Below, piece by piece: positions 32,448 to 32,977 of a stretch of 64,000 nucleotides of DNA. Every line of letters begins with the position of its first letter. Position 1 is the first letter of the stretch. Origin of the DNA: Escherichia coli (GTDB lineage Bacteria; Pseudomonadota; Gammaproteobacteria; Enterobacterales; Enterobacteriaceae); assembly GCF_030013205.1 (NCBI RefSeq), contig NZ_CP122648.1. One strand, written 5' to 3'. The position numbers and the translations under genes are program-made. The notes under the pieces are model-generated. The model worked only from the letters and a program-made list of their open reading frames with translations, did no database searches and was not told where the DNA came from.

Positions 32448-32977
32448 TCTTCCCCTGCCTGATTGTTATGTTCGTTTAAATTATGCAGTCTAAGTTTGAT
32501 ACAATCATATATTAAGCAATAGAATCCATAAAGCCCCGTTGGTGGTAAGACAACAAGCGGAGCCTCTTGCGACTTCATCAGGGTTATGTCAGTTAGTGAG
32601 GCTTATCAGGATGACCATGTACCCAAGGGGAGCGAGGCCGAACCGCTGGCAGAGCTTGCATATGGTCTGCAAGTACCGTGACCACCATAAACCTGTTTAT
32701 CCCCTGCGGCGTCTCGCGACGGCGACAGAATGGGGGCATCGGGCTAAAATGCGCTGCACTAAAAGTTTTGGGATTGTTTAGAGACGGTGGCTACGTCATA
32801 GCTTTCAAGTTGAGTCAGTACGTGTTTGACGCTTGGAACGACACGCCGCTATGAGTTAACATCCCAATTACCACTATCAACCACAGCGGCTTTTTCAAGG
32901 GACATAACAGAGCATTTCTTACAGGCAAAAGAGACAGATTTAATCGTCTAACTAACTGTATTGTAAGGAATTTAGTA

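Follow-up and report, generated by a model that had tools for sequence, protein, structure and literature searches.

In the 64,000-nt stretch of Escherichia coli contig NZ_CP122648.1 analyzed here (the window), a patch at 32448-32977 sits between an attachment (att) repeat and the start codon (32447, minus strand) of a gene for a 274-aa protein. A previous description made from the letters of the DNA (the sequence-only reading) had presented it as GC-rich and free of credible open reading frames (ORFs), and had proposed a relic of a first integration event, either the 5' region of an older island's integrase gene or an att-adjacent RNA. On balance, we lean towards the view that the patch is the conserved non-coding, tRNA-proximal end of an older element at leuX, and that its conserved module is most likely one large folded RNA of ~450 nt from the minus strand. 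Conservation, linkage to tRNA/att sites, element architecture, compensatory base-pairing and the lack of coding capacity or integrase similarity are shown by the analysis, whereas the RNA nature, the strand, the expression route and the function are inferred. The features of the locus on which the description rests are:

32980-33005, minus strand: att repeat, 26 bp, an exact match to the 3' end of leuX
32517-32979, minus strand (read from 32979 to 32517): whole conserved non-coding module, a candidate large structured RNA, ~460 bp, reaching from att to a sharp junction (...CAACGGGGCTTTATGGATTCTATTGC, then variable cargo)
31623-32447, minus strand: cargo gene directly after the module, in the variable slot, encoding the 274-aa AbiJ-NTD4 protein, which corresponds to the PADLOC candidate defense system PDC-S32

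The single tRNA gene found by ARAGORN in the leuX region of the window, that for tRNA-Leu(CAA), lies at 40295-40379 on the minus strand. The att repeat already noticed at the border of the patch is real: it is identical over 26 bp to the 3' end of leuX, it forms the far-end junction of a 7.3-kb island (33006-40294), and it marks the former position of the tRNA end beside the patch. The patch starts at this repeat, directly downstream of the target tRNA, and in strain ATCC 11775, which has only a remnant of the element, the same 530 bp directly adjoin an intact leuX; the module also abuts leuX in Nissle 1917 and E. coli C. In strain E2865, a P4-like satellite is inserted between leuX and the patch, at the same att as the island of the window. 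Because the patch abuts leuX in ATCC 11775 and different islands intervene in E2865 and in the window, we regard it as what lay behind leuX before the later insertions. Its description as a relic of the first integration event is supported: the patch belongs to an older leuX element that predates the 7.3-kb island.

In the interval from the att repeat to the start codon at 32447, the longest ORFs comprise 80, 58, 48, 44, 41 and 37 aa. None of the six has a Pfam match even at E<=10, and they are not conserved among homologues, where insertions or deletions of 1-2 nt shift the frames and stop codons arise; the earlier statement that the patch lacks credible ORFs is thereby confirmed. That the patch encodes a small protein, or a type I toxin like Hok, was considered since plasmid copies follow relBE, and was rejected because the ORFs are not conserved, the frames shift between families and K-12 hokD gives no match. 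The GC fraction of 32520-32790 is 0.531, compared with 0.372 in the 274-aa gene and 0.411 at 33006-33480. The contrast with AT-rich neighbors noted previously is therefore genuine, but the value is not unusual within the window, where 271-bp segments have a median of 0.506 and 36% of them are at least as GC-rich. The patch is ordinary in composition and the contrast comes from its AT-rich neighbors.

Distribution, carrier elements and cargo slot

The 530-bp patch is clearly no random sequence: copies with >=95% identity occur in 622 of the 5426 complete E. coli genomes, and 877 of the 5426 contain the core. The best core matches include the E. coli type strain, Nissle 1917, E. coli C and sequenced O26 and O103 strains; most E. 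coli copies are >=99% identical, and no annotation by the PGAP pipeline lies under the E. coli matches among the 60 matches listed. A more sensitive search turned up further copies of the core (~32517-32699 of the window), 70-80% identical, elsewhere on chromosomes and on 66 plasmids from ten genera; 35 of these plasmids are conjugative. A blastn search with 11-base words against 50,697 phage records returned no match to the module. A 22-nt pattern taken from the core (block 32602-32623) was run against three public collections and found 27 species genomes (Enterobacterales with two exceptions), 3 viral contigs and 108 metagenome contigs. In total, 147 copies were gathered from Enterobacterales chromosomes, plasmids and metagenomes.

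An intact tRNA gene precedes 79 of the 147 copies at a distance of 296-389 nt (Gly-CCC 38, Leu-CAA 34, Ala-GGC 5, Thr-CGT 2), and module and tRNA are co-directional in all 79. Counting partial tRNA 3' ends as well, 125 of the 147 copies, including one plasmid copy, have such an end at this distance. Behind tRNA-Leu, the stretch from att to junction is 95-98% identical among E. coli, Kluyvera, Phytobacter, Trabulsiella, Kosakonia and Enterobacter, by our estimate well above the core-genome identity of these genera, which argues that the module spreads horizontally. At glyU, K-12 and a copy-bearing strain part ways exactly at the end of the tRNA gene. The module seems to travel with its att half-site. 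On Enterobacter hormaechei plasmid NZ_CP132233.1 (locus L006, 4001-4490) the whole module occurs at 88% identity together with a degenerate tRNA-Leu 3' end (TTGTCGCGAAGGTCAGAATCGAGCC), and on plasmid pEh5_2 (L005) a partial tRNA-Gly end lies 296 nt from the module copy. On IncFIB plasmids such as pTB402 (L004/L008/L156), a core subtype follows the relBE operon after 57-75 bp, without a tRNA end and without most of the 5' domain described below, and on plasmids of Morganella and others this same subtype precedes a gene for an HNH endonuclease.

Two complete elements show what the intact carriers look like. In E. coli LWY24, an element of 13,578 bp occupies thrW and is flanked by a repeat of at least 30 bp (L042, 31700-45522; NZ_CP054556.1, 1,986.9-2,000.5 kb); in E. 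coli strain 504211, one of 13,987 bp lies between glyU and the ETT2 island, with a repeat of 20-22 bp (L154, 1250-15310; NZ_CP025865.1, 3,452.3-3,466.3 kb). Both run in the same order from the tRNA: first the module, then variable cargo, then small phage-like genes that include an O-like or DnaD-like replication initiator, then a gene for a tape-measure-like protein and, at the far end, a tyrosine integrase. The integrases read inward from starts 119 bp (LWY24) and 88 bp (504211) from attR; they are 37% identical to each other and both carry DUF6538. The LWY24 element additionally encodes a lambda-E-type major capsid protein (HK97-type capsid), and no recognizable terminase or portal was found in either element; the two may be phage satellites. 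The end of the carrier that lies next to the tRNA is thus formed by the module, and the integrase lies at the other. Of the older element, the window has kept just the module and one cargo gene (PDC-S32/AbiJ-NTD4).

Conservation stops sharply after ...CAACGGGGCTTTATGGCTTCTATTG in an alignment of 78 sequences (A6). The first sizeable ORFs past this junction encode 73 distinct proteins in 38 clusters, and 70% of the adjacent cargo genes are co-directional with the module. The contents of the slot include PDC-S32, PD-T7-4, an HNH endonuclease, a TIR protein, a PAAR toxin, a KAP NTPase, a DNA invertase and relBE. In the window, the 274-aa cargo protein matches Pfam PF18863 (E 6e-27) and PADLOC PDC-S32 (E 5.6e-104), and its RefSeq label is AbiJ-NTD4 domain protein.

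Further readings were rejected. A guide or bridge-type RNA that specifies the integration target does not fit, because neither of the two main sequence types is confined to a single tRNA: the W-type is found at tRNA-Leu and tRNA-Gly (window and L051), and the A-type likewise (L016 and L007). A miniature integrase-less islet between two att copies would show a second tRNA-end repeat, of which none is present in the available downstream sequence, the window itself excepted. An integron attC-type site is contradicted by the finding of one match per locus and per 64-kb window to a covariance model of the core (R1, below), with no junction or tRNA-end repeat bounding the cargo. A P4/P2 cos site, or a cos/pac site shared with a helper phage, is contradicted by the lack of a match in the 50,697 phage records.

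Around the module, the window holds remains of several insertions. On the 3' side of the cargo gene follow a 208-aa ORF (30948-31574), convergent with the defense gene and without Pfam or PADLOC match, and then a composite of the insertion sequences (IS) IS911 and IS30. This composite (28750-30937), an IS3-family (IS911-like) element interrupted by IS30 beside the fecABCDE operon, truncates the older element after the 208-aa ORF; the same composite is present in K-12 beside fec, in KpLE2. On the other side, the 33006-40294 island carries a resolvase, an XRE-type regulator and, beside leuX, a 650-aa tyrosine integrase (Phage_integrase plus DUF6538), which is unusually long, has DUF6538 at its N-terminus and starts only 48 bp from the tRNA end. 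A DUF4062 protein of this island matches the PADLOC candidate PDC-S60 (E 6e-27). At the far end of the island, adjoining the att repeat, ~480 bp (33006-33484) contain no credible ORF and mirror the position of the patch; no Rfam match was obtained for this stretch.

Predicted fold and covariation

The predicted fold consists of a 5' domain, a 3' core and a terminal hairpin. Helices were evaluated with a cognate test, in which the pairing energy of each sequence's own two strands is compared with that of swapped strands; the test is independent of the exact alignment. All parts are on the minus strand:

32783-32967, minus strand: 5' domain, with first hairpin 32918-32967, S1 32845-32890, S2 32820-32845 and S3 32783-32797
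32588-32764, minus strand: 3' core, closed by a long-range helix with strands 32754-32764 and 32588-32601
Interior of the 3' core, minus strand: P0 32737-32753, P1 32701-32736 (variable, GCGA loop), P2 32655-32673, P3 32631-32647, P4 32622-32630
P3 loop with 32609-32612, minus strand: pseudoknot, with compensatory forms in independently found copies
32595-32701, minus strand: match to covariance model R1, including the block CTTATCAGGATGACCATGTACC (32602-32623, plus-strand letters)
32533-32564, minus strand: P5, GC-rich terminal hairpin (GGCUCCGCUUGUUG...CAACGGGGC) followed by UUUAUGG, terminator-like, with a stem of 9-11 pairs
P5 loop (UACCACC) with GGUGGU at 32680-32688, minus strand: PK2, cognate test p<=2e-4

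At least eight helices, among them the long-range helix and the pseudoknot, keep their pairing through compensatory changes, which we regard as strong comparative evidence for a structure. The long-range helix, whose strands lie ~135 nt apart, occurs as GAUCACAC/GUGUGAUC, UUAGUG/CACUAA, UUAACCAUAC/GUAUGGUUAG and GAAC/GUUC. P2 occurs as CUUGCA/UGCAAG, CCUACA/UGUAGG, CCUGCA/UGCAGG and CCGG/CCGG, S1 as GCCGCU/AGCGGC, GCCACU/AGUGGC, GCCACAG/CUGUGGC and GCCGUCA/UGACGGC, and S2 as CGUGU/ACACG, CAAG/CUUG, CCUGU/ACAGG and GCGG/CCGC. In the cognate test, S1, S2, the long-range helix, P1 and P2 reached the same p<=2e-4 as PK2, and S3 was marginal (p=0.04); the test is uninformative for the invariant P5 and, in the pattern-collected sample, for the pseudoknot helix. 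A curated structure of 58 pairs placed on alignment A6 had 88.9% of its cells paired, compared with 82.0+-0.3% after shuffling (0 of 500 shuffles) and 32-39% when partners were slid, and its covariation score was 0.186 versus 0.096.

Copies found only by blastn or by R1, a model of 107 nt, and thus independent of the search pattern, were available from LWY24, two other E. coli and a Klebsiella variicola plasmid. The pseudoknot helix is GCUC/GAGC in these copies and AGCC/GGUU or GGCC/GGUC elsewhere; P3 has CCG/CGG for GCG/CGC, and P4 has UCC/GGA for CCC/GGG. R1 has a single match in the window (120.9 bits, E 4e-28) and none in the leuX or glyU loci of K-12. In some copies, the loops contain insertions of 20-30 nt that are themselves hairpins, located between PK2 and P2 and in P4 (L153, 5622-5911; L060, 383-672; L022; L130). 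P5 is nearly invariant and has a U.G pair in 75 of 76 sequences. Its tail UUUAUGG, which reads CUAAUGG in some copies, contains 4 U in 8 nt and falls below the 5-T threshold of the consensus terminator scan, so that P5 was not called by that scan. A riboswitch-like switch between terminator and antiterminator was considered and is not claimed, as no more than the three innermost pairs of P5 are shared with PK2.

RNAalifold on plain MAFFT alignments gave no structure for the 5' domain and a weak one for the 78-sequence core. Because the covarying stems are misaligned by MAFFT, curated helices, the tests on cognate and swapped strands and the 107-nt covariance model were used instead. The Rfam 15 scan proposed in the sequence-only reading was negative: none of 4227 models (including int-alpA, STAXI, ROOL, GOLLD, group II intron domains, ribozymes and c4) matched either strand at E<=1 in 30000-36000 or at E<=10 in 32400-33050. 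That reading's alternative guess of an att-adjacent RNA fits the covariation. It had also named the joint lack of integrase similarity and of conserved structure as grounds for giving up its interpretation; similarity to integrases was indeed not found (see below), yet compensatory pairing is present.

Strand and nature of the folded molecule

We consider it moderately well supported, and probable, that the folded molecule is an RNA of the minus strand, in the direction of the tRNA. The consensus fold has -19.5 kcal/mol on the minus strand versus -10.9 kcal/mol on the plus strand. On the minus strand only, the loop of P4 varies among GCAA, GUAA and GAAA (GNRA) and UUCG, and the loop of P1 in the family of the window is GCGA. 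Near-invariant G.U pairs lie within the helices validated by covariation and would be A.C mismatches on the plus strand. The minus-strand molecule also ends in the conserved GC-rich hairpin followed by UUUAUGG.

A folded RNA from the plus strand is unlikely but merits discussion. It would run from the cargo junction towards att and, after circularization, across attP into the integrase gene, as a structured leader or as a junction-dependent transcript comparable to that of Pcirc; this is geometrically possible, since circularization makes the module's plus strand collinear and co-oriented with attP and the integrase gene. Single-sequence z-scores and the energies of P1-P3 are slightly better on this strand, and in some families S1 is followed there by a U-run. 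However, the consensus fold is about half as good, the GNRA and UUCG loops turn into UUGC, UUAC, UUUC and CGAA, and the conserved G.U pairs are lost to the mismatches mentioned above. A promoter-like TTGATA-N18-TAGAAT is present in the window at 32496-32525 on the plus strand, yet its -35 lies in non-conserved cargo DNA and its -10 is TAGAAG in most copies. In the integrated state, moreover, such transcription would proceed in antisense orientation into a tRNA gene with high expression.

We judge it decidedly unlikely that the module acts as DNA, whether as an attP arm, a recombination-directionality region or a single-stranded DNA structure for replication, transfer or recombination (cf. ssi, sso, folded attC and CTX attP). 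The module directly adjoins the att core, the usual place of arm-type sites, it occurs on the 66 plasmids of which 35 are conjugative, and the wobble evidence for the strand is not overwhelming. Double-stranded protein sites would nevertheless leave unexplained the at least eight helices of unrelated sequence, the long-range helix spanning 135 nt, the pseudoknot and the hairpin-shaped loop insertions, and no iterons or repeated arm-type motifs were seen. The most conserved block (32602-32623) does hold a palindrome, TTATC-CT-GATAA, but this is lost in independent copies, which read CACCCTGATAA. A role as single-stranded DNA fits poorly with the O-like/DnaD-like initiators and HK97-type capsid genes of the carriers, which point to double-stranded DNA biology, and RNA-type tetraloops are present. 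The same block also resembles a DnaA box (TTATCCTGA vs TTATCCACA). Reading TTATCCTGATAA as a DnaA box or as a palindrome was dropped since neither is conserved in the independent copies; the palindrome is probably incidental.

Proposed role and relation to known systems

When intact, the phage-derived elements of this family, 13.6-14 kb long and bounded by repeats of the tRNA 3' end, have the layout tRNA/attL, a module of ~460 nt, a variable slot for defense or conflict genes, replication and phage-like genes, a DUF6538-type tyrosine integrase and attR. Integration would replace the 3' end of the tRNA gene and whatever followed it. We suppose that transcription of the tRNA continues into the module and that normal 3' processing of the tRNA then frees the predicted RNA. 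Read-through from the tRNA promoter is proposed as the simplest route because the structure begins almost at once after the tRNA and no conserved promoter was found in the spacer between tRNA and module. If made in this way, the RNA would be specific to the integrated state. P5 would halt transcription before the cargo and so shield the cargo from the strong tRNA promoter. By analogy with the CI RNA of P4 and the c4 RNA of P1, we hypothesize that the RNA serves the element in a regulatory or immunity-type role, and not any single cargo gene. In the window, IS elements cut off the rest of the older element and the later island moved the module 7.3 kb from leuX; being separated from leuX, this copy may be silent. 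In a bolder form, the module would represent a new class of large pseudoknotted RNA, expressed via the host tRNA promoter only during integration and acting as an integration-state signal or as an immunity RNA, maintaining quiescence of the element and/or gating the defense slot. We offer this as a tentative idea and think it doubtful as a whole.

Several observations weigh against the reading of the module as a tRNA-driven minus-strand RNA. The sequences fall into few clades, so that many covarying cells amount to few events, and most homologues were gathered via an exact 20-base pattern, which under-samples diversity and makes the invariance of the pattern block a matter of construction. Folding of single sequences is no more stable than that of shuffled ones (24 homologues, 40 dinucleotide shuffles each; mean z -0.65 on the minus and -1.06 on the plus strand), and the copy of the window has z=+0.68. 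Given the weak z on both strands and mixed strand energies from hairpin to hairpin, thermodynamic stability was dropped as support. Because the energies of the P1-P3 hairpins slightly favor the plus strand, the choice of the minus strand is based on the consensus fold, the loop sequences and the G.U pairs. About 30% of the adjacent cargo genes face the opposite way, and for this reason the module is not simply a leader of the cargo genes. In some families, a possible terminator-like hairpin follows directly after the tRNA, as judged from the sequence; it would weaken the case for read-through, as would the lack of a conserved promoter in the spacer. In the window, the 7.3-kb island separates the module from the leuX promoter.

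A further rival explanation takes the module of the window for a neutral remnant, its apparent structure a by-product of shared ancestry and its present function in this strain nil. This explanation, to which we give little credence, draws on the truncation of the element by IS911/IS30 and its separation from leuX, on the >=99% identity of most E. coli copies, which indicates recent spread with little time for decay, and on the unremarkable thermodynamic stability. Drift does not, however, produce helices of which both strands have changed and yet remain complementary across a family, and the module is kept intact in copies without the rest of the element and in plasmid copies. The explanation concerns the window copy alone and is compatible with a functional family.

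The main suggestion of the sequence-only reading, that the patch derives from the 5' part of a decayed P4-type integrase gene of the older island or from the region upstream of such a gene, is very improbable and is rejected at the sensitivity of the searches made: K-12 does have intB at the equivalent place beside the tRNA att, starting 260 bp after leuX, but blastn and tblastx of the K-12 leuX-intB region against the patch returned only the 26-bp att matches, Pfam was negative, and tblastn with four integrases (K-12 IntB, the 650-aa integrase of the window and the two carrier integrases) over a 532-bp search space gave at best E=0.08 over 27 aa, with a positive control that worked at E 1e-10 to 0. 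The 95-98% identity across genera, with compensatory and non-codon-like substitutions, also speaks against such a gene. In intact relatives, ~13 kb lie between this end and the integrase, which is found at the other; no integrase 5' region is therefore expected at the patch, and a position beside the tRNA is not diagnostic of one.

A search found no description of the module in the searchable literature. Its closest analogues, none of them a relative, are ROOL and GOLLD, the immunity RNAs of satellites and prophages, and RNAs from tRNA trailers. ROOL and GOLLD are large multi-helix pseudoknotted RNAs of unknown function that occur on prophages and other mobile elements, often beside tRNA genes, and were recognized by covariation and not by a phenotype. 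The module is likewise predicted to be large and pseudoknotted, is borne by mobile elements next to tRNA genes and was recognized by covariation. It differs in having no Rfam 15 match at E<=10, in being shorter (~450 nt) and in its hosts, which are Enterobacterales and not Firmicutes or environmental lineages; its adjacency to tRNA stems from integration into a host tRNA gene, whereas theirs stems from phage-encoded tRNA arrays. The CI RNA of P4, which integrates at leuX, and the c4 RNA of P1/P7 are immunity RNAs that maintain quiescence and are excised from longer transcripts by tRNA-processing enzymes. These are antisense regulators of ~70-80 nt located far from att, and the module shows no similarity to them in the blastn search of the phage collection. 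The short sponge RNA 3'ETS-leuZ, native to the chromosome, is a functional RNA that lacks its own promoter and arises from a tRNA trailer. The trailer envisaged here would differ in being mobile-element DNA, ~450 nt long and highly structured, and its co-transcription is a proposal.

Two further systems invite comparison at the level of the element. In work by Rousset et al. 2022, hotspots of P2-like prophages and P4-like satellites reportedly hold diverse small anti-phage systems at a fixed position. The slot beside the module also holds diverse systems (PDC-S32, PD-T7-4, TIR, HNH) next to conserved sequence. The flanks of those hotspots are protein-coding, whereas one flank here is structured and non-coding and lies next to att, and the carriers have a distal DUF6538 integrase and lack psu, sid or delta genes. 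Pcirc of ICEclc is an outward-facing junction promoter that att separates from its target, so that expression depends on the integrated or circular state. With the minus-strand RNA preferred here, this logic would be inverted: the host tRNA promoter would drive an RNA of the element only when the element is integrated.

For the window itself, these results correct the annotation of the patch to a relic of the first integration that forms the end of the element opposite the integrase. More generally, the module is a candidate for a previously undescribed structured RNA marking the tRNA-proximal border and the defense hotspot of poorly described 14-kb integrative elements, and it provides a practical landmark for finding new defense genes and for delimiting this tRNA-integrating element family. 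If the folded molecule is a real RNA, an unannotated class of structured RNA of ~450 nt would be present in about one-sixth of sequenced E. coli (core in 877 of 5426) and in many other Enterobacterales. If its expression is indeed driven by the tRNA promoter, such an RNA would be a simple means by which mobile elements could detect that they are integrated.

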